The notes beneath the pieces are model-generated. The model was given only the letters and a program-made list of their open reading frames with translations, had not been told where the DNA came from and ran no database searches. From IMG/VR virus record IMGVR_UViG_3300035670_000079, positions 1-64,000 of that record: a DNA stretch of 64,000 bases; one strand, given 5' to 3'. Positions 2,131-63,200 of the stretch are shown here, one piece after another. This DNA is from a virus. The translations under genes were made by a program, and so were the position numbers. How positions within the stretch are numbered: position 1 is the stretch's first letter; each line of letters begins with the position of its first letter.

Positions 2131-2605
2131 AGAAATTACACTTAGTGCAATGACTGAGGATGAGCTAGTAGCTACTGTCTACGAGATACTCACTCTTAAG
2201 GATAGGATAGACGAGTTGCAGACTAGGCAACGGGAGTTGCGGCAGCAGCTTGCTAATAAATTACTGCCAGCAGACAAGAATGCTATCGCTGTACCCTTTA
2301 CGATCAACAGTCTGCGAAAGAAGGTTGTTATCGAGGTTCCGCTTACTCCTAAGTATCATGACGTGGAAGTTAGCGCGGATGATGGCACTGTTAGGAAGTT
2401 AGATGCTATCGAGTACCTTATCAGCAAGTGTCCTAACTTAAGCAGTTGCTATTCCATTAAATACTCAGAGAAAACTGCCACGCTTAAGTCTAGGCTGCAA
2501 GTACTTGCAAGTACACCTGAGTATGCGGAAGCTATGGCTATACTGAAAGCTCATAGAACTGAAACTAAAGGTCTCCCGACTGTGGATGTGGTTGATGTCA
2601 AATAG
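2120..2605 (+). CDS. hypothetical protein (coiled-coil-like N-terminus)
   Basis: Track ORF. The start is uncertain: either GTG 2120 inside a CCGAAGGTG motif, or ATG 2150. Confidence 0.5.
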   Translation: MAIEEITLSAMTEDELVATVYEILTLKDRIDELQTRQRELRQQLANKLLPADKNAIAVPFTINSLRKKVVIEVPLTPKYHDVEVSADDGTVRKLDAIEYLISKCPNLSSCYSIKYSEKTATLKSRLQVLASTPEYAEAMAILKAHRTETKGLPTVDVVDVK

Positions 2606-2912
2606 GCGACCACCGGACGAGTTACCTAAGACAGTACCTAAAGAGGCTCCGACCCTAAATAGGGTTACAGCCGAAATAATTCATAAGCGAATCTCTGAAG
2701 CACGTAGGGGTATAACCTTAAATCAACTCATTGCCAGCTTTCAGTGGGATGGTATGACTAGGCTGGAGAAGAAGGATTTGAGATATTCCATCATACGTGT
2801 TGTGCAAGAATTGCAACGATCTGGTAAGGTTGACTCTTGTCTAACAATATCTAGTGATTCTGTGGGTAATAGCTACAAGGTTTCCGGAGGTGCCAGTGGC
2901 AAAAGTACGTAA
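2586..2912 (+). CDS. hypothetical protein
   Basis: Track ORF with ATG 2586. It overlaps the upstream stop. Confidence 0.5.
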   Translation: MWLMSNRRPPDELPKTVPKEAPTLNRVTAEIIHKRISEARRGITLNQLIASFQWDGMTRLEKKDLRYSIIRVVQELQRSGKVDSCLTISSDSVGNSYKVSGGASGKST

Positions 2913-3489
2913 GACTAAACAATTACAGATATTCAGATACGTGTGTGCGAATGGTTTATACTCTTATGACCCCTCTGGTAAGATATTGAATAATAAGGGA
3001 GTTGAACTTAAGCTAAGCATCTCTCCGTCACATACTTATCCTACGGTGTCGTTTTACGTAGGGGTTAGTTTTGCTCAGAGTATAGGCAGGGCCGGTGGTT
3101 CGATAGCTGTGTCTGCCCACAGGTTTGCAGCTTATTGCCTCTTCGGTGAGAGTGCTTTTATAGGTAATACTCAGATTAGACATCTTAACGGTAATGTTAT
3201 GGATATCTCCAAAGCTAATTTAAAGTTAGGGGATGCCTCTAGCAATATGCGGGATATTCCTGCACATATTCGATCCGCCGCAGCTAGAACTGCGAGGGCT
3301 GCTCAGCCTAAGCGACCATCTACGGCTAAACTTACAGATAATCAAGTTACACACATAAAGCGGATTTGTAAAAAGGCTAGTAACGGCGTACCGCTACACG
3401 GTGAGGTTGGACGTATTGCTAAGATGTATGGAGTTGCACCCGCTACAATCAGTGGCATTCTTGCCGGAAAGATTTACAGAAATGACTGA
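2896..3489 (+). CDS. free-standing HNH endonuclease with C-terminal HTH
   Basis: HNH-type motif AHRFAAYCLF...IRHLNGNVMDISKANLKLGDASSNMRD. The C-terminal segment GRIAKMYGVAPATISGIL looks like an HTH. GTG 2896 lies 5 nt after GGAGG; the track start is 2854. Confidence 0.75.
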   Translation: MAKVRKTKQLQIFRYVCANGLYSYDPSGKILNNKGVELKLSISPSHTYPTVSFYVGVSFAQSIGRAGGSIAVSAHRFAAYCLFGESAFIGNTQIRHLNGNVMDISKANLKLGDASSNMRDIPAHIRSAAARTARAAQPKRPSTAKLTDNQVTHIKRICKKASNGVPLHGEVGRIAKMYGVAPATISGILAGKIYRND

Positions 3490-3823
3490 CGCCGTGACAA
3501 CATTTGAAATTCCGCAGACAAGCTACAACAATCTTATCAAAGCGGTTGAGCGAGTTCAAACCGCTCTTTCCGAGGTTAGTGGCGCCGGCCTGCCGTTTCA
3601 GCTTACTTCTGGTGTTATTATGGATCTGACTAATATTGCTGCGAGAGTACAGAGTCTCGTAAATATGTCTACACCTGTTAAATCGGGTCGTGGCCGTAAG
3701 GCTGAGGGTGTTGATTTTGCGGAAACTCCCGTAGGTGTGGATGATCCGCGTACTCCTGAGGAGAAAGCTGCGGATGCTGCGGCCGGAATTAATCCCCTGA
3801 CTACAGGGGCAGGATTGACATAA
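3482..3823 (+). CDS. hypothetical protein
   Basis: Internal ATG 3482 of track ORF 3401..3823. It overlaps the upstream stop. Confidence 0.55.
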   Translation: MTDAVTTFEIPQTSYNNLIKAVERVQTALSEVSGAGLPFQLTSGVIMDLTNIAARVQSLVNMSTPVKSGRGRKAEGVDFAETPVGVDDPRTPEEKAADAAAGINPLTTGAGLT

Positions 3824-3884: not shown

Positions 3885-4217
3885 ATGGTTTACAAGTCTG
3901 TGATTGTACGTGTAACGCTTAGAACGCAGCCGGCAGTACTCTTTGAGTCAGAGTACCCGTTATTGCAGCGACTTGGTGAGTTGCAGCATAGCTTGCAGCC
4001 TATTGCAAGTACTTGCAACCTTGTCTGCGAGAATTGTTTAAGCCTAAGTGTCGGGAAATACGCTACTTTCACGGGATCGTGGGAGTTTCCTGTAAGTGAC
4101 TTACACGAACTAGAAGTGGCGTCGCTTGCTCTGTTATTTGCTGAGATATCTGATAAGGTTCTTGCAGAGTCTGACGTGATTAGTTACGAAGTTTTGAGAT
4201 TCTCCGCAAACGTCTAA
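3885..4217 (+). CDS. hypothetical protein
   Basis: ATG 3885 follows ggag just after the terminator. It is in frame with track ORF 3834..4217. Confidence 0.5.
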   Translation: MVYKSVIVRVTLRTQPAVLFESEYPLLQRLGELQHSLQPIASTCNLVCENCLSLSVGKYATFTGSWEFPVSDLHELEVASLALLFAEISDKVLAESDVISYEVLRFSANV

Positions 4218-7520: not shown

Positions 7521-8283
7521 AGTTCTGGTGTGTATGCTGCTGTTAAGCTCATACGCCTATAGCGCTGATCCTATGGCTGTCATTAGTGGCGTTAATTCTG
7601 ACAAGCCGCCGGCTGCGGGTGTTACTGGCAGACTGCTCGTGTTTAGTTCTGAGGCGTCCAGTGCGGATACCCTTTTGTGGCAATTTGATGCCATTGAGCG
7701 GGTGGCTGAAATTTATGTTTGTAATAGCGGTACTACTGCTATTGTCAACTTCGTTACTCCCGGTGAGCACACTTTTAGCTTGTTGGCAATGTCAGTTAAC
7801 GAGACTCCCGGACCTAATAGGCCTAAGATACTCACGCATAGCGTGAAGCATACAGTAAAGGTAGTAGGAGATAACAAGAAAGATACACCGATTACACCTA
7901 AGCCGGATGATCCCGTAGTAGACGTTCCGAAGGTGCCGGAAGAGCAGGATAAGCCGGGACCATTTAATGATAAGTTTGGATTCTACTCACACATTACGGC
8001 AGTGGCTAAAACGGTGGAGTTGGATAAGAAACTGGCTAAAGCTATGGGCTTGAGCTACATTGCTAGATCGCTTCGTAAGTATGATGATATTCAAAAACTG
8101 GTACTGGATCAGAAGGCCGAAAATCAAACAATTGTGGGTACAGACGCGGCTGGCTTGCAAGTCTTGCAAGCTGTGACTGCCAAGCTGATAGAATCGGCTA
8201 AAGCTGGTAAGATTGCCACGTTAGCGGATCATGGTCAGGTGTGGTTGGAGATAGGGAGCGCACTCAATGACTATTCTAAGTAA
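7507..8283 (+). CDS. secreted protein with signal peptide and Pro-rich linker
   Basis: ATG 7507 lies 8 nt after GGAGG. The N-terminus MRFFRVLVCMLLLSSYAYSA looks like a signal peptide. Confidence 0.65.
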   Translation: MRFFRVLVCMLLLSSYAYSADPMAVISGVNSDKPPAAGVTGRLLVFSSEASSADTLLWQFDAIERVAEIYVCNSGTTAIVNFVTPGEHTFSLLAMSVNETPGPNRPKILTHSVKHTVKVVGDNKKDTPITPKPDDPVVDVPKVPEEQDKPGPFNDKFGFYSHITAVAKTVELDKKLAKAMGLSYIARSLRKYDDIQKLVLDQKAENQTIVGTDAAGLQVLQAVTAKLIESAKAGKIATLADHGQVWLEIGSALNDYSK

Positions 8284-9127
8284 TATCTCCGATTTAAGCG
8301 ATGCTGCAATAGCTAGATTGTACCATTTGGGGTATATCGACAACGGTATAGAGTTGCAGGAAGTCTTAGATATTAGGAGTCTCCCCGAACTTCAAGATGC
8401 GATAGCACACTTTCAACAGGCTAACAATATAGTTGAGACAGGTACTGTAGATAGTGAGACACTAACAGCGCTGACAATTGCGCGATGCATGACGCCAGAT
8501 AGGGCGGGGTCGGTCTGCGCGTGGCCGGCAAATATGCCCAAAACGCCAGAAGGCAACCTATTGATTAAGACTACTCATAGGATTGAGAATCTTAACCCGC
8601 TTGCGGCGGAACTTGAGCGGAAGGCTTGGTTGCAAGCTCTTGCAAACTGGTCGCAAGTTTGTGGGATTGAGTTAGTTCTGCACACGTCATTCGCAGATAG
8701 TAATATTCATGCCGAGGTCAGTGTCCTTGACGCGGGGACACTGGCTTATAGTTATTTGCCGTGCAATGCTAAGCCGACTACAAAGTTGGAGCAGCGTTAC
8801 AATAGAGCCGTTAACTGGAACTATAATCTGTTAGTGCAGGTCATTACGCATGAAATTGGTCATGCAATAGGGCTAGATCACGGTCCTCGCGGTGCTCTCA
8901 TGCAACCTACGGCTAATGGAGATATTCTTACGCCGCAGGCTTGGGATATTACAGAGGTAGTCAAGAGGTATGGTCCCCGTAAGGGTTCTGTACCTAAACC
9001 TAATCCAACACCTACTCCCGAAGGTGGGAAAGTAGTAGGAAAACTTGTATTGGATCAAACTCTTAACAAAGGTGAGTATGCCATCACACTTCGCGACGGT
9101 AAGCTGGAGATAGACTATGCGCAGTAG
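8267..9127 (+). CDS. matrixin (MMP/M10A)-like zinc metalloprotease zymogen with PG-binding-like prodomain
   Basis: Prodomain AIAHFQQANNIVETGTVDSETLTAL, cysteine-switch-like ARCMTPD, catalytic HEIGHAIGLDH (HExxHxxGxxH), and Met-turn GALMQP. Confidence 0.8.
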   Translation: MTILSNISDLSDAAIARLYHLGYIDNGIELQEVLDIRSLPELQDAIAHFQQANNIVETGTVDSETLTALTIARCMTPDRAGSVCAWPANMPKTPEGNLLIKTTHRIENLNPLAAELERKAWLQALANWSQVCGIELVLHTSFADSNIHAEVSVLDAGTLAYSYLPCNAKPTTKLEQRYNRAVNWNYNLLVQVITHEIGHAIGLDHGPRGALMQPTANGDILTPQAWDITEVVKRYGPRKGSVPKPNPTPTPEGGKVVGKLVLDQTLNKGEYAITLRDGKLEIDYAQ

Positions 9128-11227: not shown

Positions 11228-11740
11228 ATGGGGTGTGCTATGTTTAAGTTCTTTCGCGGCGATGATGTCACATGGTTACGTCATGGGGTGCTGGTTAAAG
11301 GTAGGATTACCGAGATTCTCCCGGATGCTCGGATGCTTGTGTGTTACAACACGGGCTACTTTAGGATTTCCATGAGGGATGTTAAGTATGTCAACGACAA
11401 TCCAGTTACGGCTGGGTTTATTGACGAGGCCATTGTACGGTCGCGTGTTACAGTTACGTCTTACATCAAGAATGGTGTTGAGGTTACCGTTTGTCGCGCT
11501 TGTCAATCTGGGCCATGCCGTTGTGCTGAGCTTGCCGCTATGCGTGACGATTGCATGTATGACTATTGGGATTACTGTGGTGATCCAGAAGAGTTAGCTG
11601 AGTGGGATATGTATGTTGATGCCTTTATTGACCGGGAAGAGGCTAAGTACACCGATCTTCGGATTAAGTATCGGCCATCCGGAAAGTACTGGAAGCATCA
11701 GCCGCGTAGGAGTAAGCCAGTGGCAAGCCCTTGCAAGTAG
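11228..11740 (+). CDS. hypothetical protein
   Basis: Track ORF. An alternative ATG is at 11240. Confidence 0.55.
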   Translation: MGCAMFKFFRGDDVTWLRHGVLVKGRITEILPDARMLVCYNTGYFRISMRDVKYVNDNPVTAGFIDEAIVRSRVTVTSYIKNGVEVTVCRACQSGPCRCAELAAMRDDCMYDYWDYCGDPEELAEWDMYVDAFIDREEAKYTDLRIKYRPSGKYWKHQPRRSKPVASPCK

Positions 11741-13966: not shown

Positions 13967-13981
13967 TTGCAAGTCTTGCAA
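13967..13981. promoter_or_regulatory. intergenic copy of the dispersed palindrome TTGCAAG-T-CTTGCAA fused to the SD
   Basis: The context is tag|TTGCAAGTCTTGCAAGGAGctagtATG, with the motif between an upstream stop codon and the SD. Confidence 0.6.
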
Positions 13982-16073: not shown

Positions 16074-16163
16074 CGCCCCTTAGCATAATGGTAATGCCTC
16101 CGGCTTATACCCGGATCAGCGTCTGATAAACGCGAGATGTAGGTTCGACTCCTACAGGGGTGA
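16074..16163 (+). tRNA. atypical ~90-nt tRNA with anticodon loop CUUAUAC (UAU, Ile-type) and a 23-nt extra arm
   Basis: Hand fold: acceptor CGCCCCT/AGGGGTG, D arm GCAT-aatggta-ATGC, anticodon arm TCCGG-cttatac-CCGGA, extra hairpin GCGT-ctgataa-ACGC, T arm GTAGG-ttcgact-CCTAC. Confidence 0.6.
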
Positions 16164-16214
16164 CTTAGAGTTGTAGGTTACTACGAGTATTAGTACCATT
16201 CTTGGGAGATAGCT

Positions 16215-16890: not shown

Positions 16891-16905
16891 TTGCAAGGCT
16901 TGCAA
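16891..16905. promoter_or_regulatory. intergenic copy of the dispersed palindrome TTGCAAG-G-CTTGCAA fused to the SD
   Basis: The context is tag|TTGCAAGGCTTGCAAGGAGtgagtagtATG. Confidence 0.6.
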
Positions 16906-18392: not shown

Positions 18393-18794
18393 ATGGAAGA
18401 GTTTGCTGAGCAGCTACGCGAGTTTATAGCTAATTGGCAGCAATTCAATAAATCTGCCACTGTATTTCGTGGTAGCAGTAGGTGGATTCACGTTGATGAA
18501 CTCTCGGCTTACCTTAGGATATCTCTTAGATATATCAACGGCACTTACTGCACCGTGTTAGACGTAGCCTCTGTTACAGTACATGACGAGAACTTAGGTT
18601 ACTGTCAGCAGATATTTAGGCTAGTGGAATCCGAGGCATCTAAAACTGTAGGTGGTGTTTTTGTTGAGAGTGTGTGCCACCCTGCTATGGCACACATTTG
18701 TGAAAAGCGTGGTTACTCCCGTATTAGTAATGGCGGGGGTTTAAATTACTTCAAATGTAAGGATGAATTATGTACTGCAACGACCCTGCTGTAG
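18393..18794 (+). CDS. hypothetical protein
   Basis: ATG 18393 lies just after the tRNA 3' exon. The upstream part of track ORF 18261..18794 reads through the intron and exon. Confidence 0.55.
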   Translation: MEEFAEQLREFIANWQQFNKSATVFRGSSRWIHVDELSAYLRISLRYINGTYCTVLDVASVTVHDENLGYCQQIFRLVESEASKTVGGVFVESVCHPAMAHICEKRGYSRISNGGGLNYFKCKDELCTATTLL

Positions 18795-19342
18795 TTAGTG
18801 TCGCACGTACCGTAGCTGGTTCAGGTGTTCGTCAAGTTACGTATGAACTTACGGATACGGTTACACTTCACAGCCGGTACTGGAGTGGCGGAACTAAGCA
18901 CCACTATTACCGCAGAAGTATCGCGGTGTCTCCTAGTGGTACTATTAAATTCCCGGAAACTCAGAAAACTGAAGACTATAAACTGAGTCCCGGTGAGGTT
19001 GTAGTGCTGTGTGCTGATGTTGGCACTAAGCAGTATGTGACAGTGTACTGTCACCCGGATACGCCTATTGCCAAGATGCCGGCGAATCAAGTTACGCTGC
19101 AAGGCTTAACTACGCACCTGAAACTCGTGTTGTGGTCAACCCGCAACAATAAGTCAAGTTATGCTGGTATCAGCAACTACAGATACTACTGCGTTCGCAG
19201 TTATATTACGCAAAGTGAGTGGGATGCTGCCCGGTCTGCCTTGATAAAAGTAGGCCTGCTCGACGGGCGTGGTGCTCTTACTACTGCTGGTAAGAATCTT
19301 GCAGATGAGCTTGGGCATACAGTTACTAGCATCGTAGGTTAG
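18770..19342 (+). CDS. hypothetical protein
   Basis: Track ORF. Confidence 0.55.
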   Translation: MYCNDPAVVSVARTVAGSGVRQVTYELTDTVTLHSRYWSGGTKHHYYRRSIAVSPSGTIKFPETQKTEDYKLSPGEVVVLCADVGTKQYVTVYCHPDTPIAKMPANQVTLQGLTTHLKLVLWSTRNNKSSYAGISNYRYYCVRSYITQSEWDAARSALIKVGLLDGRGALTTAGKNLADELGHTVTSIVG

Positions 19343-19344
19343 TC

Positions 19345-19992: not shown

Positions 19993-20293
19993 GGATACCC
20001 TTCTAAGTGAGGTCAGTGCGTTAATAGCCGTAGAACCTAACTTAACGCTGGCCGATATTGCCAAACTCTTGCAGTATAACCAAAGATACTTGGGTAGGCA
20101 GCTTAGCGGTACAGCCCTTAGGAAGAAGATACGAAACAAGGCTAGGGGTATGCGTTACTCTAAGCTTAATGCTGCTAAGCACGAAGAGATACGGGCACTA
20201 CGCCTTAAGGGTAAAAAACTGCGAGAACTCGCAGAGCAGTTTGGCGTAAGCCATCAAATGATTTCACAAATATGTTCAAAGGGGTTAAAATGA
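19979..20293 (+). CDS. HTH DNA-binding protein (paralog family member 2)
   Basis: Module KHEEIRALRLKGKKLRELAEQFGVSHQMISQICSKG. Confidence 0.6.
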   Translation: MSTARDTLLSEVSALIAVEPNLTLADIAKLLQYNQRYLGRQLSGTALRKKIRNKARGMRYSKLNAAKHEEIRALRLKGKKLRELAEQFGVSHQMISQICSKGLK

Positions 20294-26944: not shown

Positions 26945-26954
26945 TTAAATTTTT

Positions 26955-45364: not shown

Positions 45365-46952
45365 GGCACACATAAATAGTCGTGGTGAACCCCTAAACTT
45401 TGTGGATTATCCGCATATTCGAGAACTATATAATTCTGCTGCGCCTCACATAATTCTTAAGGGGTCTGTGCAGTGCTTTAAGAGTGAGTTTATCATTGTA
45501 GACCATTTTGCTGCCGCTGTAGCGGGCTTATCAATATTCTTTGTGCTCCCTAAAGTGGAATCACGCAGTACCTATGTTCAAAACCGGATTAATCGAACAG
45601 TTGAGAATGTAGATGCCTATAAGACAATTATCGGAGAAAGTTTCTTTGACAGTGTTATCCTTAAGAGTTTCGGCAAGGGCGTTATTAAATATGTGGGTTC
45701 TAATAGTATAGCGGACTTCCGAGAGTTCCCGGCTGATATGCTGATAGTGGATGAATATGACGAATGTAACATGGATAATATTGCGTATGCGTCTGACCGG
45801 TTACGCGGATCACCTTACCAGTTTTCTAGGCTAATAGCTAACCCTAGTATAGTTGATGGCGGCATAAGTCAACTTTATAAGGATTCATCTCAAAAGGCTT
45901 GGCATGTGCCGTGCTATGCTTGCGGTAAGTACTCTGAAGTAGACTGGTTCAAAACAGTCGTCCGAGAAGTACGCGACGGCGGTAATAACATCATAGACTA
46001 TGCGTTAAGGGATACTGAGTGGGAACCCGGCATGCGCCGGGATATTTATTTAATCTGTCCACATTGTAATGGCGCAATGCTTAGGCATAGTAAGAAGGGT
46101 AAGTGGGTTCCGAAGGTGCCAGATCACCCCATAGAAGGGTATCACTTATCTATGCTCACTAGTTTGCTTAATAGAGTCTCCGACATGTACCGGAGATTTA
46201 AAGTTGCACAACATGATCCTTCAGCTTTGCAGCATTTTTACTCATCTGAATTGGGTCTAACCTATGCAACCTCTGACAATAAAATTACGCTGGATCTTTT
46301 GAGAAGTTGTACGCAGGGTGGGTATAATTTTGAGATTCAGGATAGCTATGCGTCTATTCCCGGAGATGCCTGTGTTGGACCATGCTCTATGGGAATAGAT
46401 GTTGGAAAGTCGCTTGATGTTAGGATTAGTCGTAAGCTACAGAATGGCAAGCGATTGGCCGTATTCATTGGAAAGGTCTTCGGACAGAGTAACGTGCTGG
46501 AGTTGATTGAACGATATAATGTACAAGCTGTCGTAATGGATGCTGGACCCGAACTGGCCTTTGCTCGTGAGACGCAGGAGATAGTTCAAAATGAACTCGG
46601 ACTTGAAATGTGGTTATGCCGTTTTAAGGGTAATGATGGTACTCCCGGTAATATCACTCATAACGAAGTTAGTCGTACTATATCTATAGACCGCACAGAA
46701 GGTTTAGATAAAGTTCTCAGTGAGTTACGCAGAAAGCGTACAATTCTACCGGAGAACTTTGAAGCTATCTATCAGGGTGGTTATAAGGCCGAGATGTGTA
46801 CGCTGAATAGAATAGCAGAGGAGGATGCTAAAGGTCGTAAGAAATATAGGTGGGTCGGAAAGGATGCCGACCATTCTATGTTCGCTGATCTTTATGACAT
46901 CTTAGCGTCAAGTTTTATAGACTCTACTCCGATCGAAGCCATAGTCGGCTAG
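45279..46952 (+). CDS. terminase large subunit (GpA-like)
   Basis: Walker-A-like LKGSVQCFKSE, Walker B MLIVDEYDE, and Cys pairs CYACG..CPHCNG. It is followed by the portal. The start is uncertain (ATG 45279, GTG 45309 or track 45201). Confidence 0.8.
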   Translation: MLETASEQELVRAQKLLEIRNNRVLFATKAHINSRGEPLNFVDYPHIRELYNSAAPHIILKGSVQCFKSEFIIVDHFAAAVAGLSIFFVLPKVESRSTYVQNRINRTVENVDAYKTIIGESFFDSVILKSFGKGVIKYVGSNSIADFREFPADMLIVDEYDECNMDNIAYASDRLRGSPYQFSRLIANPSIVDGGISQLYKDSSQKAWHVPCYACGKYSEVDWFKTVVREVRDGGNNIIDYALRDTEWEPGMRRDIYLICPHCNGAMLRHSKKGKWVPKVPDHPIEGYHLSMLTSLLNRVSDMYRRFKVAQHDPSALQHFYSSELGLTYATSDNKITLDLLRSCTQGGYNFEIQDSYASIPGDACVGPCSMGIDVGKSLDVRISRKLQNGKRLAVFIGKVFGQSNVLELIERYNVQAVVMDAGPELAFARETQEIVQNELGLEMWLCRFKGNDGTPGNITHNEVSRTISIDRTEGLDKVLSELRRKRTILPENFEAIYQGGYKAEMCTLNRIAEEDAKGRKKYRWVGKDADHSMFADLYDILASSFIDSTPIEAIVG

Positions 46953-46967
46953 TTGCAAGACTTGCAA
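46953..46967. promoter_or_regulatory. intergenic copy of the dispersed palindrome TTGCAAG-A-CTTGCAA
   Basis: The context is tag|TTGCAAGACTTGCAAggggtgatcATG, between the TerL stop and the portal SD. Confidence 0.6.
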
Positions 46968-48766: not shown

Positions 48767-50176
48767 ATGCCCGACGTTGTAGTTGCAGTTAGCCCTGGAA
48801 ATTCTGTCATTTATGACAATACGGCAGATCGTATTGTCATAGAAGGCACTCCGGATATGACCTCAACCCTCAATATTAAGGGTTTTGTGTCGGTAGATAT
48901 TGTAGACCGTCAGGGTGAGAAAGTAGACCCCTCTGCATTCGACATTGATGGGTTTATGAGGGCTGGCTCTGTTCTGGTCAATCATCACCTCTGGTTTGAT
49001 GATAGGGGTTGTCCAGGTTCCGTAGGTACCGTAACTTCTCTTCATGAAGTAGAGTTACGGGAACTTGATGCAGAAAACTGGGAAGTCTACGACGTGCGTA
49101 AGAATGTGCGTGTAGATACTTATCCCAAATCTCGCAATGGTAACTTCTATAAAGGCTTAAAGGGTCTTTATACATTTATACGTCTTTCTAATCCTGATGT
49201 TATAAGTATGGTTAATAAGGGAGAGTTGAAGTCATTCTCATGGCGCGGCGATTCGATACGTGACTACAGATATGACCGCGCTACAAACTCTACATACCCC
49301 AGTTACTCTAAAATAGGTATTTGGGAAATATCCTTAGTATCGGTACCGGTGCAACCAGACTCCGGTTTCGTGGTTTCAAAGGATATGTTCCACTCAATGT
49401 GGTTAGATAAGAGTCGGTATAACTTGAATCAGGCAAGAGCACTGGCAGATAAATTTAGACTGCCTTGTGATAAAATATACGAAACTGATGACGGTATCTG
49501 CATTTATTCAGGTAATGCTACATTGGCTACCAAGTCGCTATCTACGTTCGAGGCGTTTTCAGGAGCCTGTATAGTAACTGCAAGTACTTGCAACTTGGCG
49601 ACTACCTCGCAGGCTAAGTTCGATATTTCAAAAGATGCCCTAACTCGATTTCATTCCAGTTTGATGAGGACGACTCAAATGAGTGAACAGGCTCCTGCTA
49701 CGGGTAATGCTACTCCGGTGGCGCCGGTTGCAAAGTTTACCCCCGAAGAACTCTCTGTTGTGACTAAGGGTGTCGTGGATGCGCTCATCCCGGCATTCTC
49801 TGAAACCATCACAAAGTTGACTGACAGCCTTACCAGTACGCTCACCACTGGTATGACCGGTCTGACTGAGGTGGTTAAGGGTATGCAACCCAAGACGCCC
49901 GAACCTGCGGCTAAGGCACCTGAAGTTGCTGCCGAAGGTGCTCAGAAGCTTGTGGATAGCGTTAAGAGTCTTATTGAAGAGCATCAGAGGGCTGTTGATG
50001 CTAAGTTGGCTGATATTCAAAAGTCCTTTACTACGATTATTCCGCAGAGTAAGCCGCGTGGTGACTCTACGGAACCGGGGAAGACGCCCGCTGACGGCAA
50101 TACCGGCAATAATGGAGGTACTCCGGATAAGAACTCCGTGTTTAATTCTATTTTCTTGCAGATGGCTCGGCGCTAA
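48767..50176 (+). CDS. prohead protease/scaffold-like protein
   Basis: It lies between the portal and capsid genes. The C-terminal third is Ala/Glu/Lys-rich and helical, as in scaffolds. I recognised no catalytic motif. Confidence 0.45.
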   Translation: MPDVVVAVSPGNSVIYDNTADRIVIEGTPDMTSTLNIKGFVSVDIVDRQGEKVDPSAFDIDGFMRAGSVLVNHHLWFDDRGCPGSVGTVTSLHEVELRELDAENWEVYDVRKNVRVDTYPKSRNGNFYKGLKGLYTFIRLSNPDVISMVNKGELKSFSWRGDSIRDYRYDRATNSTYPSYSKIGIWEISLVSVPVQPDSGFVVSKDMFHSMWLDKSRYNLNQARALADKFRLPCDKIYETDDGICIYSGNATLATKSLSTFEAFSGACIVTASTCNLATTSQAKFDISKDALTRFHSSLMRTTQMSEQAPATGNATPVAPVAKFTPEELSVVTKGVVDALIPAFSETITKLTDSLTSTLTTGMTGLTEVVKGMQPKTPEPAAKAPEVAAEGAQKLVDSVKSLIEEHQRAVDAKLADIQKSFTTIIPQSKPRGDSTEPGKTPADGNTGNNGGTPDKNSVFNSIFLQMARR

Positions 50177-51719: not shown

Positions 51720-51735
51720 TTGCAAGCCCTTGCAA
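51720..51735. promoter_or_regulatory. intergenic copy of the dispersed palindrome TTGCAAG-CC-CTTGCAA
   Basis: It lies between the hairpin and the next start (GTG 51737 or ATG 51749). Confidence 0.55.
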
Positions 51736-52962: not shown

Positions 52963-53733
52963 ATGTTAAGCATTGATGGGCTAGAGGAGTATTTAACTAC
53001 ATTATGGTGCCCGCTAATTCAAAGTGGTCCAAATTTAACTGATCTTAGTGGGTTGGGCCATGACGTTAACTTAACTGGGACACTCACTAATGTGCCCAAT
53101 AAGGGGGTACTCCTCAATAACTCTACTGGCGCAATAGGTACATATAAGAGTCAGTTAGGTCGAAGGTTAGTCGGAACTCTATCTATTTGGTTTGAGCTAA
53201 TCAGCAGCGCTAGTACGGGTTATTTTATTAGGCAACGGTTTTCAGCCTCTGATTATGCAGAGTTTGGCATTAACAGTGCTGGAAGATTTTTTTACACTAC
53301 TAGCAGCGGCTTAGCAATTAACGATAGTATGCAAACATTTTCACCAGGGGTTCGCTATAACTTAATACTTTCTGTAGGCAGTTTTGGAAATAGGGTTTAT
53401 ATAAATGGCTCTAGGGATCTCTGTTCTTATGGTAATGGGACAGCCGCCACACAAGTGTTTTTAGCGACTGTTACGTATCCAGGAACGCTGACCTTAGGGC
53501 ACATCGGTGCAGGCGCTAGTAGCATTAATGCTTACCTAGGCGAGCTAGCTATCTTTGACTGTTCTATTAACGAAGTTTCAGCTAGACGACTTTACAGTAT
53601 TGGCCCCCTAGGACTGCTAAGTGCAAGAAATTTACTAAGACGCAAACGTGTAGGCTCAGCAAGTGCGGCTACTTTTAATGCCGCTTTAGCTCGACACTCA
53701 AATCAGCTTATTTACCCGAACTTGGTGAGATAA
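52963..53733 (+). CDS. LamG/concanavalin-like jelly-roll protein (tentative)
   Basis: ATG 52963. The C-terminal YLGELAIFDCSINEVSARRLYS resembles the LamG-type signature. The assignment is tentative. Confidence 0.5.
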   Translation: MLSIDGLEEYLTTLWCPLIQSGPNLTDLSGLGHDVNLTGTLTNVPNKGVLLNNSTGAIGTYKSQLGRRLVGTLSIWFELISSASTGYFIRQRFSASDYAEFGINSAGRFFYTTSSGLAINDSMQTFSPGVRYNLILSVGSFGNRVYINGSRDLCSYGNGTAATQVFLATVTYPGTLTLGHIGAGASSINAYLGELAIFDCSINEVSARRLYSIGPLGLLSARNLLRRKRVGSASAATFNAALARHSNQLIYPNLVR

Positions 53734-56147
53734 TGCGCAAAAACGTGGCTGGGCAGATCATCGGCATACAAATGCTGGCCACTGATGGCAGTAACTTCAC
53801 TGGCACAGTGACCGTGTATATCACTGGTGATAACGGTACGCAAGCAATTGGTACCGTTGGTTCAGGTGTGTGTACGCATAAAGGTAAAGGTTTTCACACT
53901 TACGCACCGTCGCAAGCAGAGACTAACTATGATCATATTGCTTTCACTTTTGAGGGGACCGGGGCAATAACTGCGACTCTGCAAGTCTACACTCGTGTAG
54001 ATGTCAATATTACGCATTGGTTAGCTACGGCAGTTACCGGAGACGGGGATTGGGCTGAGTTGCAAGGTGATATTGACGATATTTTAGTCGATACTGGCAC
54101 CTCCGGAGTTATTGTTGCCACCAATAATGACAAGACCGGGTATAGCCTTACTCAAGCATTTCCAACCAACTTTGCAAGTCTTGCAATTACGGTCGGTGGC
54201 GCCGTTACTGTGGGTACTAATAGCGATAAGACGGGGTATAGTGTTTCCGGCACAATTACTACGTTGGACGCACTTGATACTGCGCTCGATGCTGCTCATG
54301 GTGGTGGAAGCTGGGCAACTGCTACGGGTTTCTCCACATTTGACCATACTACAGATCAAGTTACAGTTGCTGTTAATAACGATAAGACTGGTTACAGTCT
54401 TACTCAGGCATTTCCTAGCAACTTTGCAAGTCTCGCAATTACTGTGGGAGGTGCTGTTACTGTTGGCACCAATAGTGATAAAACTGGATACAGTATTTCC
54501 GGCACAATTACTACGTTGGACGCACTTGATACTGCGCTCGATGCTGCTCATGGTGGTGGAAGCTGGGCAACTGCTACCGGATTTTCCACGTTTGATCACA
54601 CAACAGATCAAGTTACGGTTGCTACCAATAACGATAAAACGGGGTATAGCTTAACACAAGCATTCCCAAGTAACTTTGCAAGTCTTGCAATTACCGTAGG
54701 TGGTGCTGTGACAGTTGGAACTAATAACGATAAGTCTGGATATAGTATTTCCGGAACAATTACCACTCTCGATGCTCTGGATACCGCCCTTGATTCGGCG
54801 CATGGTGGTGGTAGCTGGGAAGCTCCAAGTGCGGCTACGGTTGCTGATGCAGTGTGGGACGAACTGCTTAGTGGGCATGTCATTGCAGGTAGCGCTGGGG
54901 CGGCTTTGTCCGCAGCAAGTAGTGCAGGAGATCCGTGGGCTACGGCTCTCCCCGGAGCATACTCAGCAGGTACGGCGGGGCATATTATTGGCAATCTCAA
55001 TGATTTGTCTATGGCGGATATCCGCACTGCTGTAGGGTTAGCGTCGGCTAATCTAGATACGCAGTTGTCCGGATTAAGTACTTTCGATCACACTTCAGAC
55101 CAAGTTACGGTGGCCACTAATAACGACAAGACCGGTTACAGTCTCACTCAGGCATTTCCTAGCAACTTTGCAAGTCTTGCAATTACGGGAGGTGGTGCTG
55201 TCACGGTTGGTACCAATAACGACAAAACTGGGTATAGTATCTCCGGTACGTTGACTACGTTGGATGCGCTTGATACTGCCCTTGATTCTGCTCACGGCGG
55301 TGGAAACTGGGAAGCTCCCTCGGCTGCTACGATAGCAGATGCTGTTTGGGATGAGTTATTAAGTGGTCATGTTATAGCAGGTAGTGCTGGTGCCGCACTG
55401 GCCGCTGCTGGTAGTGCAGGTGATCCGTGGTCAACTCTACTTCCGGGAGCGTATTCTGCGGGAACTGCCGGGCACATTATCGGTAATCTCAACGATCTTT
55501 CGGCAGCGGAGATTCGTACAGCGGTCGGGTTAGCTGCGGCTAATTTGGATACGCAGCTTGCAGCTATGGATACTATACTTGATAGATTTAATACCATGAT
55601 TGAACTTGACGGTTCCGTGTATCGGTATACTACGAATGCACTGGAATTAGCTCCGGCGGGGTCCGGAGGTGGCAGTACTGCCGCACAAATATGGTCGTAT
55701 GCTAGTAGAACACTTACTATGACGGCTCAACAGATACAGGATGTAGTAGAGTCAAATCTAATTACAATACATCGCGGAGACACGATCAGCATATCTTTGA
55801 CAGGTCTTGGTGACTTGTCTGACGCTTATGATATAATATTCACTATTAAGCGATCCTCTGGTGATCCGGAAGATTCAGCCTCAATGCTGCAAGTGCGTAT
55901 GGAAGGTGGCTTAATTTACTTAAACGGTGAAGTTGCCGCTGATTCCGCGCTGGGTGATATTCTTGTAGTGGATGAGGCCGAAGGTGATATTGAGATTAGT
56001 GTAGAGGCTGAGGCAAGTGCTGAGCTTGTACCCAGTGAATGCTACGTCTGCGATGTGCAAGTCTTGCGATATCCGACAGGCACCGTAAATACCGTGCATA
56101 ACAGCGCATGTCATGTGATTGAAGACGTTACACGAGGAATCGTCTAA
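53733..56147 (+). CDS. repeat-rich fibre protein (head or tail fibre)
   Basis: 804 aa. It has about 4 NNDKTGYSLTQAFP.NFASLAIT.GGAVTVGTN.DKTGYS.SGT.TTLDALDTALD.AHGGG.W modules and two AVWDELLSGHVIAGSAG...ANLDTQL modules. Confidence 0.7.
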   Translation: MRKNVAGQIIGIQMLATDGSNFTGTVTVYITGDNGTQAIGTVGSGVCTHKGKGFHTYAPSQAETNYDHIAFTFEGTGAITATLQVYTRVDVNITHWLATAVTGDGDWAELQGDIDDILVDTGTSGVIVATNNDKTGYSLTQAFPTNFASLAITVGGAVTVGTNSDKTGYSVSGTITTLDALDTALDAAHGGGSWATATGFSTFDHTTDQVTVAVNNDKTGYSLTQAFPSNFASLAITVGGAVTVGTNSDKTGYSISGTITTLDALDTALDAAHGGGSWATATGFSTFDHTTDQVTVATNNDKTGYSLTQAFPSNFASLAITVGGAVTVGTNNDKSGYSISGTITTLDALDTALDSAHGGGSWEAPSAATVADAVWDELLSGHVIAGSAGAALSAASSAGDPWATALPGAYSAGTAGHIIGNLNDLSMADIRTAVGLASANLDTQLSGLSTFDHTSDQVTVATNNDKTGYSLTQAFPSNFASLAITGGGAVTVGTNNDKTGYSISGTLTTLDALDTALDSAHGGGNWEAPSAATIADAVWDELLSGHVIAGSAGAALAAAGSAGDPWSTLLPGAYSAGTAGHIIGNLNDLSAAEIRTAVGLAAANLDTQLAAMDTILDRFNTMIELDGSVYRYTTNALELAPAGSGGGSTAAQIWSYASRTLTMTAQQIQDVVESNLITIHRGDTISISLTGLGDLSDAYDIIFTIKRSSGDPEDSASMLQVRMEGGLIYLNGEVAADSALGDILVVDEAEGDIEISVEAEASAELVPSECYVCDVQVLRYPTGTVNTVHNSACHVIEDVTRGIV
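54110..55570 (+). repeat. intragenic 252-bp (84-aa) repeats and a higher-order ~480-bp duplication
   Basis: The stretch tttccggcacaattactacgttggacgcacttgatactgcgctcgatgctgctcatggtggtggaagctgggcaactgcta recurs at 54244 and 54496. Confidence 0.85.
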
Positions 56148-57840: not shown

Positions 57841-58301
57841 CGGAGCATACAGGCTTAGCGGGTGTATATCAGACGGTGATTGGCGGGCTGCGGGCTAATG
57901 CAACACTTGCAAGTCTTGCAACTCACACCACTACAAATTTGAGAATCGGCAGAGAGATGCCGATTACAGCTAAGTCAATACCATATGTCAGCGTAGCTGT
58001 GGCAAAGTCTATGCCGCAACTTGTGGATGTTCCGGATATCATATCGGGTAAGCTATGTGTGAGTGGGTATCATAGCAATTCAAAAGATTGCACGATATTA
58101 GCAGATGCTATTCAAGCGGTTTTTAATACGGCAATGTCTGATAATAGGGCATATTTTAATCCAAGTGGCGGAGTTAGTTTTAAGGATCTGAGATTTCTGA
58201 GTAGGTCTTCTCAAGTGTATAAACAGGCAGAGGGTTACTATATGGAGTCTGTGGAGGCTCTGTTTATCTGTAACATCACTACACCTTGCCCGGAGGTATA
58301 A
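57837..58301 (+). CDS. neck/tail-terminator module protein (positional)
   Basis: ATG 57837 has an ATGA overlap. It is in frame with track ORF 57825..58301. Confidence 0.5.
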   Translation: MTEHTGLAGVYQTVIGGLRANATLASLATHTTTNLRIGREMPITAKSIPYVSVAVAKSMPQLVDVPDIISGKLCVSGYHSNSKDCTILADAIQAVFNTAMSDNRAYFNPSGGVSFKDLRFLSRSSQVYKQAEGYYMESVEALFICNITTPCPEV

Positions 58302-59517: not shown

Positions 59518-59922
59518 ATGACAGAGTCTGTCAGTGCTTATCTGTTGCCGTCTAAGGCGCTTAAGCTTAAGGATCAGGATGTCACGGTTAGAAATCCCAG
59601 CTTACGTGACACTATTCGAGTAATCTCAAAGCTGTTGGCACATAAGGATGATATTGTAGAGTACTTTCAGAGTGATAACGCCACCGATGGTGCCAATATC
59701 CTTTTGAAGATATCGGAGAATGATACCTTCTTCAACCTGTACTGCGACATTGCAAGTGCTTGCAGCGATAAACCTGCGAGCTTTTACGCTGACTTGTCGC
59801 TACCGGAATCGTTACAGTTTATAGATGCTCTTATTGAAGTTGTCAATTTTAAGCAAATTTATGACCTTTTTCAAAAAACCCTGATGAAAGTCCCGGCGCT
59901 GTCGTCGAGCAATTCGACGTAG
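59518..59922 (+). CDS. tail assembly chaperone (G-like, zero-frame product)
   Basis: It lies immediately upstream of the tape measure. A -1 frame ORF overlaps its 3' end. Confidence 0.65.
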   Translation: MTESVSAYLLPSKALKLKDQDVTVRNPSLRDTIRVISKLLAHKDDIVEYFQSDNATDGANILLKISENDTFFNLYCDIASACSDKPASFYADLSLPESLQFIDALIEVVNFKQIYDLFQKTLMKVPALSSSNST

Positions 59923-60221
59923 ACAACGTAGCTGCCATCATAGACACCATCTGCAACCAGTACGGTTGGTCTGACGAATATGTGTTGGATCGACCGTATT
60001 GTGTTGTAATGGCTTTATGTGGTGCGATCAGGGTTAGGAAGTATCGGGAAATTCGCCTAAATCACTCGGTAGCAGCGTTAGCTCAGCCGTTAGGTGAGGG
60101 CGGGACAACTGCAATAGATAATTTCTTTGAGTCGATATGTCCTAAAGATATGCTAGTAAGCTCTATGTATAGTTTTAATGTTAACAGTAGCTCTGCTCCG
60201 ACCGGTCTGGCAAGGATCTGA
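59518..60221 (+). CDS. tail assembly chaperone, -1 frameshift-extended form (GT-like)
   Basis: The -1 frame is open from 59865 (just after TGA 59862-64) to TGA 60219-21. A T5-C-A6 tract at 59867-59878 lies inside the 58-nt overlap window. Confidence 0.55.
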
Positions 60222-60224
60222 AAA

Positions 60225-63200
60225 ATGTCGCTGGGAAAGTTCATATTAGAGCTTGACCTTGAAGTTAAGAAATTCTCACAAGGGGCCGCGCAAGCTACTA
60301 GGGATTTCGCAGCCTTCTCTAAAGCCATCGGTGGCGATAGTGAGGCTATGCGAAATAGTCTTGAGAATAATCTCAAAACATGGGAAGCTGAGCTTTCCAA
60401 GATTCAGGGTCAACTTAAGAAGTTTAATGACCCAATGGCCCCTATGATGGGGTTATCTAAAACCAGTCCGCAGTTCTCACAACTTACGGCGGAACTTCAG
60501 CAAGCTACTGCAAATGTAGAGAAATTTAAAAGTGCTCTGGCAGGCTTGCCTACATTTGTAAATAATCTGTCATATTCGGCAAGTCTTGTTAAAGACCTCG
60601 CTTTTCAAGTAAATAGCCTTAACCTACAAAATATGGTCAATGCGGGTAATATTCTTGTAAGAACTTCTACTATGTTTAAGACTCAATTTGCCCTGATGAT
60701 CGGGCAAATCGGGTTATTTGGCATGGCTGTTAAATCAATCGTAGATTACGGTGCTGGTTTCCAGCAGCAAATGGACCGGGTTAGGTCCGTTGTTGGAGGT
60801 TTGGCGGAGCCTACTGAGCAGGCTACGGCAGACTTCAATAGACTTGAGGCTGAGATTACTCGGCTTGGTGATAAGTTACCGGTTACTTCGGCTCAAGTTG
60901 CAGAAGCAGCACAAGCGTTAGGTCAGGCTGGTTTCAGTGTTCAGGAAATTATAGATTCTCTTGAAGCTGCCGTTGACTTAGCGCTGATATCAGGTATGGA
61001 GTTAGGTAGGGCGGCTGAGGCTCTCGCGGATATTAAGACTGCGTTCGGACTTGAAGCAGACTCCCTTAACGGTGTGTTGGATGTGTTGGCTAAGACAGCC
61101 GCATCCGCTAATACTACCGTGGATCAGCTTGTTAACGCCTTTAGTTTTGCCGCACCGGTTGCCGCATCGCTGGGTCAAGCCGTAGATGAGACAGCTATTG
61201 CACTGGCAGCGTTGTCCAATTCAGGCATTAAGTCAAGTCGCGCAGGTACAGGCTTAGCTCAGATTCTCTCAGGTCTTGTTAGAAAGACCCAAGAGACCGA
61301 TGAGCTTATGCGTAAATATGGTTCTAGCTTTGATGCTGTTAACCCGGCTGTTCACAGTCTTACTGAGATTATAGCAGAATTCCAGCGAGTTAATATTAGC
61401 TCCGGCGATGCTATGGAGTTCTTCGGTGAGCGTGCCGGTAGAGCTATGCTTGCACTTACTAATATTGATCAAGATCAGCTTACGCGGCTTGGCACCACTA
61501 TTCGAGATAATTTTGGTGAAGGTGCTAAGCAGGCCGCAGTTCGATGGGAAAACGTCGCCGGCCTTATCGCCGAAGGCGTGTCACGTATAGAAGCAATTAA
61601 ACTTACAGTATTCAATGCAATAGAGAAGGATATAGTAAGGATTCTCTCTATTGCAGTTGACTGGCTGACAAAACTCTCCGAGGCTATGAAGATGCCGGAG
61701 AATCAGCAGTTTATTGCAAGTCTTGCAAGAATTGGTGCGATTCTCTCCATACTCTTGGTTACCTTAGGTGCGGTAGGCCTGGCACTGGGTTCTATTGCTG
61801 GTGTAATCGGTACCCTTACGGTTACATTTGCCTCAGCTTCGATGCAGGTAGCTATTACTGAGGCTAGTATAGCTAAGCTTGAGACTGAGCTAGAGCAAGC
61901 ACAGTTGGAGGCTTTGAAAACTGCCGCAGCTAACACAGAATTGGCTGCAAGCTACACTGCTTTGGCCATAGCTGCCGGTGCTGCCGGTAAAAAGCTTGTT
62001 GCAAATACTGCTGCTGCCCGCGCCACTGCTGACGTAGTTGCGGCTCAGGGTATGTTCGGCGCCATTATGCCGATGCTTAAGCAAGCTTTTCTGTACATGG
62101 GGCAATTTTTAGCTAAATTTGCAACAACTATTGCCACAACTCTGGTAATAGTAGGCGTAATAGTTAGCGCTATTGAGACATTATCTCAGCTTGCTGCGGA
62201 GGGTGCTGGTAAGTTCGGCATGCTGAGTGGTCTAGTTGAGGCTATTAGCAGCAGTCTTCGCGGCCTGTGGTCCGGTGTTATGGCTGTTTATGACGCTTTT
62301 GAGAGTCTTACAGGCTCCTTAGGCGGCACAGCTAAGACTGTAATGTATGAACTTGTCGAGCAATTTAGGATACTTCTTGAAGTCTTGCAGCCACTGTTTC
62401 CACTAATAGGCGCCATAGCGGCTATTTTCATAGGTGGTCCCATAGTGGCGGGGATGAAGGTATTTAAGTTATTGGTCATAGGCATTAGCGGCGCTATATC
62501 CTTTATGCTTGATATAGTGAACGGCCTTGTAGCAGGCTTAGCTGTATTGGCTAAAGGTTTTATGGAAAATCGCAGTCTTAGTGAAATGATGTTTGATGCC
62601 TACCTAGCCGCCTTTGGCGGACTTGTAGCTAATATCATGGATCTAATAGGTACCCTCGCCTATTATGCAGATTACGTGTTTATGGGATTAATTCCTGACC
62701 ATGTTATTGAAAAGATATTTGAAGAGGCTGACAAAGTTCGCAAGAAGCGTAAAGAGGTATTTGGAGATGTCGGTATAGAGACAGACTCCCAAGAGGGCAT
62801 GCGTGAGCGCGATGCGCGCGGTCGCGAAGAGTATAACCAATCAACTGAAACCAACGTAGTTCGCTCCAACTTACTGGATCGTCAAGTTCAGCAATACAAT
62901 GAAATGTTGGACTTGCAGAAGCGTTATGATCAGTTGACTGGTGCGGAGCTGGATAAGCTTGCCCAACTCAAGGACAGTTTAAGGAATAACGGTCAATCAA
63001 TAGAAGATTTAAAGAAACGTGCAGAAGAACTCATAGAAGTAGAAAAGAAAAACAGAGCGTTCGCAGAGGAGACTGGGCAAACTCAGGCTGTTCGTCTGCA
63101 CGATATTCGCATAGAAAAGCTTCAAGAGGAGTTGGAAACACTTAAGGAACTCGACAAAGCTAATCTTGAGTTCCAAGCTAACAAGACTATGACTACTTCT

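Follow-up and report, generated by a model that had tools for sequence, protein, structure and literature searches.

A dispersed palindrome in an uncultivated tailed phage and a compact ParB-family protein as its candidate reader

What reads a short inverted repeat that recurs about once every 2 kilobases (kb) along a phage chromosome, inside genes as well as between them? The question is raised by the palindrome TTGCAAG-N1-2-CTTGCAA in a stretch of 64,000 nucleotides (nt), positions 1 to 64,000 of the IMG/VR virus record IMGVR_UViG_3300035670_000079, which belongs to an uncultivated tailed phage of about 100 kb and is referred to below as the window. The dispersed palindrome is a real and functional feature of the DNA, it is likely to be bound by a protein, and a compact ParB-family protein encoded in the same window is a tentative candidate for this role.

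The palindrome and the level at which it is selected

The original prediction, which was made from the letters of the window alone, listed 24 perfect copies of the palindrome, and every one of them was found where it had been placed, against none in 100 dinucleotide-preserving shuffles. The site is two-fold symmetric, with arms of 7 base pairs (bp) around a centre of 1 nt in 15 copies and 2 nt in the remaining nine, giving forms of 15 and 16 bp. Copies with at most two mismatches number 24 + 18 = 42, as opposed to about 0.32 + 0.32 expected, and the density across the phage chromosome is roughly one copy per 1.5–2.7 kb. Likewise, CTTGCAAG was observed 27 times against 1.3 expected, and TTGCAA, itself palindromic, is the commonest palindromic hexamer of the window (81 against 17.8 expected). 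Thirteen copies in all carry a single mismatch. Nine of the twelve proposed as such stand, but those at 42799, 43813 and 56055 have two mismatches, and four others (21547, 39138, 25814 and 25824) had been overlooked, the last two within a terminator that is indeed built on the same core.

Thirteen of the perfect copies are intragenic and 11 are non-coding, and copies outside long open reading frames (ORFs) are over-represented (10 of 24 in 16% of the sequence, binomial P = 0.002). Five had been described as sitting exactly between a stop codon and the next Shine-Dalgarno sequence; this holds for 13967, 16891, 44482 and 46953, which fill the respective gaps, but not for 51720, which is intergenic and lies further from the stop (Table 1). 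The 15-bp form accounts for four of the five intercistronic copies, and the 16-bp form predominates in a repeat-rich region at 25.7–30.9 kb. This region contains four copies with the 73-bp phasing that had been noted, and both copies reported from its GC-rich island, one perfect and one with a single mismatch, are present.

The enrichment within genes does not follow from codon content. A codon-preserving shuffle of the long plus-strand ORFs gave 0.2 copies (maximum 2) against 14 observed; these 14 include the copy at 46953, which lies upstream of the true start of the portal gene, leaving 13 that are truly intragenic. The intragenic copies are read in all three frames (as LQxLQ, ASLA/ASxC and CKTCK), rather than in the two that had been recognised. 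A further line of evidence comes from the gene at 53733-56147, which encodes 804 residues, probably a tail protein, and comprises four diverged tandem copies of an 84-residue (252-bp) domain, each encoding NFASLAIT. Where these repeats are identical in amino acid, the mean pairwise codon identity is 0.47 outside the motif (n = 36) but 0.92 for the six codons over it, the sole change there being a synonymous one that breaks one copy. Synonymous sites between the repeats are thus near saturation and are frozen only over the motif. Comparable constraint was noted in two pairs of related phages, designated here, like other relatives, by locus numbers: L124 and L125 are 86% identical overall, with motif columns 100% and 30-nt flanks 82% identical, and L161 and L162 are 71% identical overall, with motif columns 98% and flanks 67% identical. 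Since the copies occupy three frames, exceed the codon shuffle and coincide with frozen silent sites, selection acts on the nucleic acid and not on a peptide, as had been proposed, and it includes purifying selection on the copies.

The phage family and its versions of the palindrome

Nearly all genes of the window lie on the plus strand, and among their products are a gpA-type large terminase subunit (TerL, 45249-46952), a portal protein, an exonuclease, RNase H and ThyX. A near-identity DNA search of GenBank phages recovered no match to the window, and the best GenBank phage matches of its TerL share 21% identity. TerL homologues of about 40–53% identity were found on many metagenome contigs of around 100 kb, several of them marine-labelled (TARA). 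A scan of IMG/VR with the single TerL protein gave no match, an alignment being needed as the query, and a scan for the 15-mer of the window met at least 119 loci, of which the 80 listed had single-copy matches only, so that no close relative was seen in that collection. The stretch 32965-53612 (20.6 kb) is that of L224 (SRR11566350) and L225 (JGI 3300034072), having been recovered at 100% identity from an independent sequencing run, and because an identical stretch was thus obtained more than once the phage is a real entity. Among 185,579 species genomes we detected two distant contigs of metagenome-assembled genomes and no integrated prophage.

When 79 TerL-related loci and IMG/VR contigs were scanned de novo for inverted repeats with a gap, the palindrome proved to have a family of lineage-specific versions. 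The form (A)GTGCAAG-YR-CTTGCAC(T) is carried by L120/L123 (13 copies in 21.7 kb), L203, L298 and L299, and reaches 37 copies in 67.6 kb in IMGVR 3300009514_000019 and 14 in 33 kb in 3300010883_000205. GTGCAAGCGCTTGCAC occurs 25 times in 54.5 kb of 3300032132_000009 (L124) and six times in L125. TGCAAGCGCTTGCA is the version of L124 and L144, the latter in the form TGCAAGCGCTTGCA(TAG), and TGCAAACGTTTGCA is that of L132/L133 and L161/L162, whose palindrome, (T)GCAAACGTTTGC(A), is the core of the enterobacterial PurR operator (PMC3159470, PMC3739930). Sparse and different palindromes were found in L137, L157, L169 and L173, and the scan detected no dispersed palindrome in L134, L135, L145 and L146. 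The motif-bearing relatives, at about 50% TerL identity to the window, have a similar copy density, and their sites are perfect palindromes of 16–18 bp with the 16-bp spacing form only.

Individual copies also keep their positions. The copy in the gap between the TerL and portal genes (46953) is shared by the window, L120, L124 and L125, and four relatives keep an intragenic copy close to the folE 3' end, its silent centre in each case being the preferred dinucleotide of its own genome. Because each genome uses one sequence, lineages differ and copies are under purifying selection, the comparisons point to a co-evolving, sequence-specific reader rather than to an element defined by structure only.

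A candidate reader and its competitors

The most economical and best-supported reading, which the original prediction had offered among others, is that the palindrome is the site of a dimeric DNA-binding protein. It would be recognised by a phage-encoded, sequence-specific dimer that co-evolves with its site. Homologues in the motif-bearing relatives were detected (tblastn, phmmer) solely for window genes beyond about 36 kb, and the DNA-binding candidates among these shared proteins are a TerS-like helix-turn-helix (HTH) protein and the 215-residue product of 42965-43612, the sole candidate whose presence tracks the motif in the relatives. This product is a member of the ParB family, as had been suspected. 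It displays a ParB/Srx N-terminal domain with a GNGR box, three short helices (residues 105–144), a proline-rich linker and a confidently modelled C-terminal domain of a strand and two helices. It matches phrog_620 (2e-20) and, among Protein Data Bank (PDB) sequences, pNOB8 ParB-N, Noc and ParB, while Foldseek searches with its AlphaFold2 model (pLDDT 79) recovered ParB-CDP, Noc, KorB and PadC. With respect to the ParB motifs for binding and hydrolysis of CTP (GERRxRA, ENLQR and a catalytic Gln/Glu), residues G59-N60-G61-R62 and N95 are invariant, and the Glu and first Arg of the GERR box are replaced (residue roles as in PMC13229309). The strand-helix-helix pattern of the C-terminal domain had also led us to consider a ribbon-helix-helix fold, which we discarded for lack of support in Pfam, in PDB sequences and in Foldseek searches with a confident monomer model.

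A ParB protein with this C-terminal domain and the TGCAAG palindrome occur together in all eight distinct genomes where the region is available, namely the window, L120, L124, L179/L202, L203, L298, L299 and L144, the last with a divergent version. The classical position of parS is next to the parB gene; correspondingly, a perfect copy lies 1–152 nt past the ParB stop codon in seven of seven relatives (eight loci), and in the window a two-mismatch copy lies 200 nt past it. ParB-N proteins without this domain occur without the palindrome, both as methyltransferase fusions (L137 and L171) and as the type seen in L130/L131, which also have DpdA and Que genes. As the window and L144 combine ParB and motif with no DpdA or Que genes (in 64 kb and 12.5 kb, respectively), and L130/L131 have those genes and no palindrome, the motif tracks this form of ParB and not the modification genes.

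From these comparisons we infer both that a protein binds the site, which we regard as likely, and that the compact ParB is its binder, which we advance tentatively. The copies would then serve, like parS, for docking or loading; one of them adjoins the parB-like gene, the phased array of the centromere- or origin-like non-coding region accounts for four, and the others would lie wherever coding sequence allows. From them ParB could occupy, spread or slide over the entire phage genome instead of controlling single promoters, and such occupancy might serve the organisation or marking of the genome, long-range regulation in the manner of KorB, or the escort of DNA-modification enzymes, which in the relatives are encoded by adjoining genes. 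A more specific version strikes us as rather improbable: here the copies would mark 'self' as loading sites of a minimal ParB-type clamp, which would slide, on phage DNA only, between sites about 2 kb apart and would escort or activate enzymes that modify DNA after replication (in the relatives, DpdA/7-deazaguanine) or further activities that act on the whole genome.

Several observations weigh against ParB as the reader. Hidden Markov model alignments with Noc and ParB break off where the HTH of those proteins begins, most of the canonical DNA-binding domain being gone, though in our own reading a conserved LTGFQEHEL segment may form an HTH. No significant match, in fold or in sequence, was obtained for the C-terminal domain with Pfam, PDB sequences or Foldseek, and in L144 this domain is very divergent while the motif core is unchanged. 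CTP-driven clamping is uncertain because GNGR stands in place of the GERR box and there is no catalytic Glu. Both the 15- and the 16-bp spacing are tolerated in the window, which is unusual for a rigid dimer. No ParA, CbiA or AAA_31 protein was found in the approximately 45 window ORFs scanned, 37 kb of the 101-kb JGI metagenome contig of the phage lying beyond the window. L132/L133 and L161/L162 have a related palindrome and no ParB within the 10–22 kb available; a search for a reader in L162, with its TGCAAAC-type motif, met an extracytoplasmic function (ECF)-type sigma factor, an adenosine phosphosulfate (APS) kinase and a sulfotransferase, all upstream of the terminase, and no ParB. The co-occurrence is, moreover, confounded by shared ancestry, as the genomes encoding ParB with this C-terminal domain form one clade. 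Finally, ParB-like activators let a DNA-modifying enzyme act both in vivo, on the genome of Escherichia coli, and in vitro, on lambda DNA (PMC13229309), so that phage-specific sites are apparently not required. A TET/JBP dioxygenase like that beside the ParB of the same study was not detected here by Pfam or PHROGs.

The alternative that survives best, although we consider it unlikely, is that the copies are operators or roadblocks of another regulator: a fast-evolving phage repressor or activator, a multi-HTH protein of the window, or a host factor of the LacI/PurR or nucleoid-associated type whose specificity would differ between hosts. All evidence for selection at the DNA level fits it equally well, and so does the presence of the motif in L161/L162 with no ParB nearby. 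The versions of L124, L144, L132, L161 and L162 (TGCAAGCGCTTGCA and TGCAAACGTTTGCA) fit the 14-bp central-CG operator pattern of the LacI/GalR family (TGNAANCGNTTNCA), and the PurR box core in L161/L162 would suit a LacI-type host reader. Against this, 15 copies in the window are odd-spaced, CG, the centre used by LacI-type hinge helices, is found in only 2 of the 24 perfect copies, and no LacI-family gene was seen among the window ORFs scanned.

Other forms of this explanation resemble the phiC31 CIR or the stoperators of Cluster A phages, short sites repeated about 24–36 times per genome (some 30 repressor sites genome-wide), many in very short gaps, with motif and binding protein diverging together between lineages (PMC9283540, PMC6550527). 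The palindrome shares their copy number, short-gap placement and lineage divergence, but stoperators are asymmetric 13-bp sites oriented with transcription and bound by a monomeric immunity repressor in temperate phages, whereas ours is a perfect palindrome. A lysogeny repressor is unlikely because neither an integrase nor an immunity repressor was seen among the window ORFs scanned and no prophage relative turned up in the species genomes. The window does encode four adjacent multi-HTH proteins at 18770-21231, one of them a 319-residue protein with HTH matches every 50 or so residues, and the original prediction had named those at 19345-21231 as possible readers; however, no homologue of these proteins was detected in the relatives examined, including those with 25–37 copies of the core. 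Most copies, furthermore, lie off promoters, and the four stop-to-Shine-Dalgarno gaps are too short for one. A promoter reading, prompted by the resemblance of TTGCAA to a –35 hexamer, was rejected because these gaps leave no space for a –10 element.

A decidedly doubtful alternative holds that the palindrome is the target or nucleation point of a site-specific base modification, for example insertion of 7-deazaguanine by DpdA aided by a ParB-like protein. In seven relatives (L123/L120, L124, L179/L202, L203, L298, L299 and the P0140 contig) ParB is the first gene of a module that continues with a small ORF, a DpdA-like transglycosylase (phrog_887, 1e-25), QueC, in some cases an amidotransferase (Asn-synthase-like in L298 and L299), QueD, QueE and FolE, followed by TerS and TerL (L120 3939-9361, L298 5019-11497, L299 4082-10211). 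In Salmonella the ParB-like DpdB is needed for the insertion of preQ0 by DpdA, and together they modify about 1 in 1000 nt, the one mapped site being nested in a 12-bp palindrome and requiring a C after the target G (PMC10164549). Our motif contains TGCA, and its density, about one per 2 kb, resembles in order of magnitude that of Dpd modification in bacteria; phage T-dioxygenases, too, are known to have ParB-like activators (PMC13229309). Yet DpdA, QueC, QueD, QueE and FolE were not found in the 64 kb of the window, nor in the 12.5 kb of L144, and L130/L131 have ParB, DpdA and Que genes and no palindrome. There is also no obvious benefit in enriching a 16-bp site merely to modify it, and the DpdAs known from phages act on a large share of all G residues, within short contexts.

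It is very unlikely that the palindrome works as RNA, that is, as an intercistronic hairpin bound by a phage RNA-binding protein or nuclease in mRNA processing, stability or translational coupling, of which processing and coupling had been suggested. The four copies in stop-to-Shine-Dalgarno gaps and the fifth 13 nt before an ATG would be well placed for this, as would the roughly half of the L120 copies that are positioned likewise; outer-pair changes between lineages from T-A to G-C keep the pairing, and a terminator (25813-25847) is built on the core. Nevertheless, most copies lack a T-run and would form a 6-bp stem with a 3–4-nt loop worth only –3.6 to –4.6 kcal/mol; that composite terminator alone is of terminator grade. 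Within one genome every copy has the common sequence and not pairing alone, and by our count only 4 of the 13 one-mismatch copies are G-U-compatible variants, with 17% expected by chance. The RNA reading is further opposed by the 13 intragenic copies in three frames and by six perfect copies, including the phased array, in a non-coding region resembling an origin or centromere.

This region, 25700-30900, has no convincing genes and is probably an origin or partition region. The phasing of its four copies corresponds to about seven helical turns, and each of the three intervals holds a second palindrome, AAAAGTGTACACACTTTT (26556, 26629 and 26702). Other repeat families surround the array: 39-nt inverted repeats at 25917-25955 and 26919-26957, a (GA)n run near 25975, seven 14-bp tandem repeats at 27938-28064, three 15-bp repeats CACGCCCAGACCGGC at 28488-28535 and AT-rich TTTTTTGCGTATTTT repeats at 30426-30610. 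The GC-rich island (28000-30000) is 58.6% GC against about 45% elsewhere, and contains direct repeats at 28413 and 29967 (38 nt, 79% identical), both beginning with the motif, as well as at 29169 and 30010 (39 nt, 92% identical). ORF 29278-29964 in this island gave no Pfam match. The phasing, the repeats within this 5 kb and the adjoining gene for an AAA+ ATPase (24420-25661) would suit an origin iteron bound by an initiator such as that ATPase, with the other copies as secondary origins or titration sites. We regard this as highly improbable for the motif as a whole: 38 of the 42 copies lie beyond the array, window-wide and in late genes too, and no homologue of the AAA+ protein was detected in relatives sharing the motif core. 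Initiator iterons, besides, are usually direct repeats and not perfect palindromes.

Short palindromes can spread by templated mutation, but the view that the motif has no function, being the outcome of biased mutation or repair, a selfish mini-palindrome or an error of assembly, is extremely improbable and effectively refuted by the independent assembly of the identical 20.6-kb stretch, by purifying selection relative to flanks in two independent relative pairs and within a repeated gene, and by copies that hold their positions in genomes that have diverged by about 50% in amino acids. Readings of the motif as a restriction site or as an element like Chi or a DNA uptake sequence were set aside, the site being a long palindrome that is enriched rather than avoided and differs between lineages.

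Table 1. Copies of the palindrome and related features in the window
Position	Strand	Feature	Context
2495-2510		One-mismatch copy	
4003-4018		Perfect copy, 2-nt spacer (TA)	Intragenic
8155-8169		Perfect copy, 1-nt spacer	Intragenic (LQVLQ)
8630-8645		Perfect copy, 2-nt spacer (CT)	Intragenic
11721-11736		One-mismatch copy	
13967-13981		Perfect copy	Directly after TAG stop, before GGAG Shine-Dalgarno of next gene
16891-16905		Perfect copy	Directly after TAG stop, before GGAG Shine-Dalgarno
21547-21561		One-mismatch copy	Absent from original prediction
23733-23747		Perfect copy	Intragenic, close to gene 3' end (LQALQ)
25813-25847	+	Intrinsic terminator, –21.6 kcal/mol plus T-run	Stem of overlapping one-mismatch copies 25814 and 25824
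26216-26230		One-mismatch copy	Non-coding region
26512-26746		Four perfect 16-bp copies (26512, 26585, 26658, 26731)	73-bp phasing, non-coding
27079-27093		Perfect copy	Non-coding region
28414-28429		Perfect copy	Non-coding, within GC-rich island (28–30 kb)
29968-29983		One-mismatch copy	GC-rich island
30720-30734		Perfect copy	Within ORF 30400-30792 (CKTCK frame)
31711-31726		Perfect copy, 2-nt spacer	Intragenic
33070-33084		Perfect copy	Intragenic, close to gene 3' end
34959-34974		One-mismatch copy	
37112-37127		One-mismatch copy	
39138-39152		One-mismatch copy	Absent from original prediction
40409-40423		Perfect copy	Within exonuclease-like gene
42799		Two-mismatch copy	
42965-43612	+	Compact ParB-family protein, 215 residues	Candidate reader of the motif
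43813-43827		Two-mismatch copy	200 nt past ParB stop
44482-44496		Perfect copy	1 nt after TAA stop, before Shine-Dalgarno of TerS-like gene
46953-46967		Perfect copy	TerL TAG stop directly 5', portal Shine-Dalgarno 3'
49578-49593		One-mismatch copy	
51720-51735		Perfect copy	Intergenic, 28 nt past stop, 13 nt before next ATG
54172-55182		Perfect copies 54172, 54676 and 55168	In tandem 84-residue repeats of gene 53733-56147
54424		One-mismatch copy	In repeats of gene 53733-56147, broken by synonymous change
56055		Two-mismatch copy	
57907-57921		Perfect copy	Intragenic
59750-59765		One-mismatch copy	
61714-61728		Perfect copy	Within long ORF reaching past window end

Comparable systems and significance

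A full-text literature search retrieved no match for TGCAAG-type variants, and the sequence itself is undescribed, as the original prediction had stated, but elements of this kind have been published. The closest analogue, though not a homologue, is the unexplained palindrome of Cluster O mycobacteriophages (Corndog and relatives), TGTTCGG-N3-CCGAACA, a 17-bp site with 34 copies in about 70 kb, of which some 40% are intergenic and the others within or at the edges of genes, mostly off promoters; its authors predicted a dimeric DNA-binding reader (PMC4351075). Both elements have 7-bp inverted arms, a short variable centre, genome-wide spread and tens of copies, and both belong to apparently non-temperate phages encoding a protein with a ParB-like domain. 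They differ in sequence, in spacer (3 as against 1–2 nt) and in phage lineage, and the Cluster O report contains neither lineage-specific variants of the motif nor tests of synonymous sites, both of which are available here. Corndog gp90 was considered as a homologue of the compact ParB and rejected, having 502 residues and a different architecture.

The sites of ParB-family proteins (parS, the NBS of Noc, the OB of KorB, sopC and the inverted repeats (IR) of N15) are, like our motif, palindromes of 13–18 bp, often with a free central dinucleotide. Noc, KorB and N15 each have multiple dispersed copies on one replicon, with 12 sites per 60 kb in RK2 and about 70 per 4 Mb for Noc. In both cases sites lie next to the parB gene, and the 73-bp phased array recalls the tandem sopC of the F plasmid, a centromere; this array resembles a centromere or an origin. 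The use of dispersed palindromes by Noc and KorB is in part documented in PMC11790492; the four IR sites of N15 SopB read GTGCGACC-NN-GGTCGCAC (PMC7205306, Table 4). On the other hand, the density of our motif, about one per 2 kb, is 5–100 times higher, many of its copies are intragenic and it has two spacings, and the window encodes a protein without most of the DNA-binding domain and the catalytic Glu and, in the ORFs scanned, no ParA. A parallel in protein architecture is provided by the accessory proteins of the DpdB/DpdA (PMC10164549) and ParB/T-dioxygenase (PMC13229309) systems, which are likewise compact, with a nucleotide-binding N-terminal domain, a short helical segment, an unstructured linker and a C-terminal dimerisation domain. 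The ParB gene of the relatives heads a DpdA/preQ0 module beside the terminase genes, and the Salmonella DpdA/DpdB site, like our motif, involves a palindrome; but those accessory proteins are not known to need or recognise dispersed specific sites, and the window has no modification genes in 64 kb.

HIP1, with which the motif had been compared, is an 8-bp sequence, GCGATCGC, iterated through cyanobacterial chromosomes; it differs in sequence and length, CGATCG occurs only twice in the window, and the comparison is a loose analogy only. Repetitive extragenic palindromic (REP) elements are imperfect 20–40-nt palindromes with a cognate Y1 transposase (RAYT), whereas our motif is 15–16 bp long, with 13 of its 24 perfect copies intragenic, and no transposase was seen in the ORFs scanned. 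The combination of GC-rich stem and U-tract typical of intrinsic terminators is met only by the composite at 25813-25847.

Some further features of the phage and its relatives were noted in passing. Of the 64 palindromic hexamers, 15 are absent from the window, each being expected 9–18 times (TTCGAA, ATCGAT, AGATCT, AACGTT, GTCGAC, GGATCC, GAGCTC, GACGTC, CTGCAG, CTCGAG, CCATGG, CAGCTG, ACGCGT, GGGCCC and CCCGGG), which amounts to strong restriction-site avoidance; L120 lacks 30 hexamers in 21.7 kb despite its 7-deazaguanine module. Many TerL family members (P0012, P0017, P0043, P0062 and others) are 820–946 residues long, about 350 residues longer than usual in the family, and the longer genes, including L298 12141-14951, bear LAGLIDADG or intein-type domains (PF14528, PF14890), which suggests inteins inserted in the terminase. 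The sole match in Rfam and tRNA scans was a tRNA-Ile with anticodon TAT at 16074-16164 (ARAGORN; Rfam 57 bits). An ORF of at least 1259 codons runs from about 60.2 kb past the end of the window (60222-64000); its product, probably a large protein of the tail or of a fibre, shares 45–49% identity with proteins from the relatives.

Dense phage palindromes without a known function have been on record since at least 2015, when those of Cluster O were described, and orphan ParB-like proteins are widespread in phages and are recently being linked to DNA hypermodification. With lineage-specific motif variants, selection at silent sites and a single conserved candidate reader, which in the relatives is encoded first in a 7-deazaguanine module, this phage family is a system well suited to tractable comparison, and a test of ParB binding in it would, if binding is true, connect the two puzzles. 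The motif would then represent the densest ParB-type site system known and suggest a way in which a phage could tell its own DNA apart so as to organise, silence or modify it; if the clamp version were also true, it would imply a general role for the orphan compact ParBs of phages and for dispersed palindromes such as that of Cluster O. Should ParB prove not to be the binder, the motif would still reveal that some global DNA reader operates in these phages, an abundant marine and sediment group.

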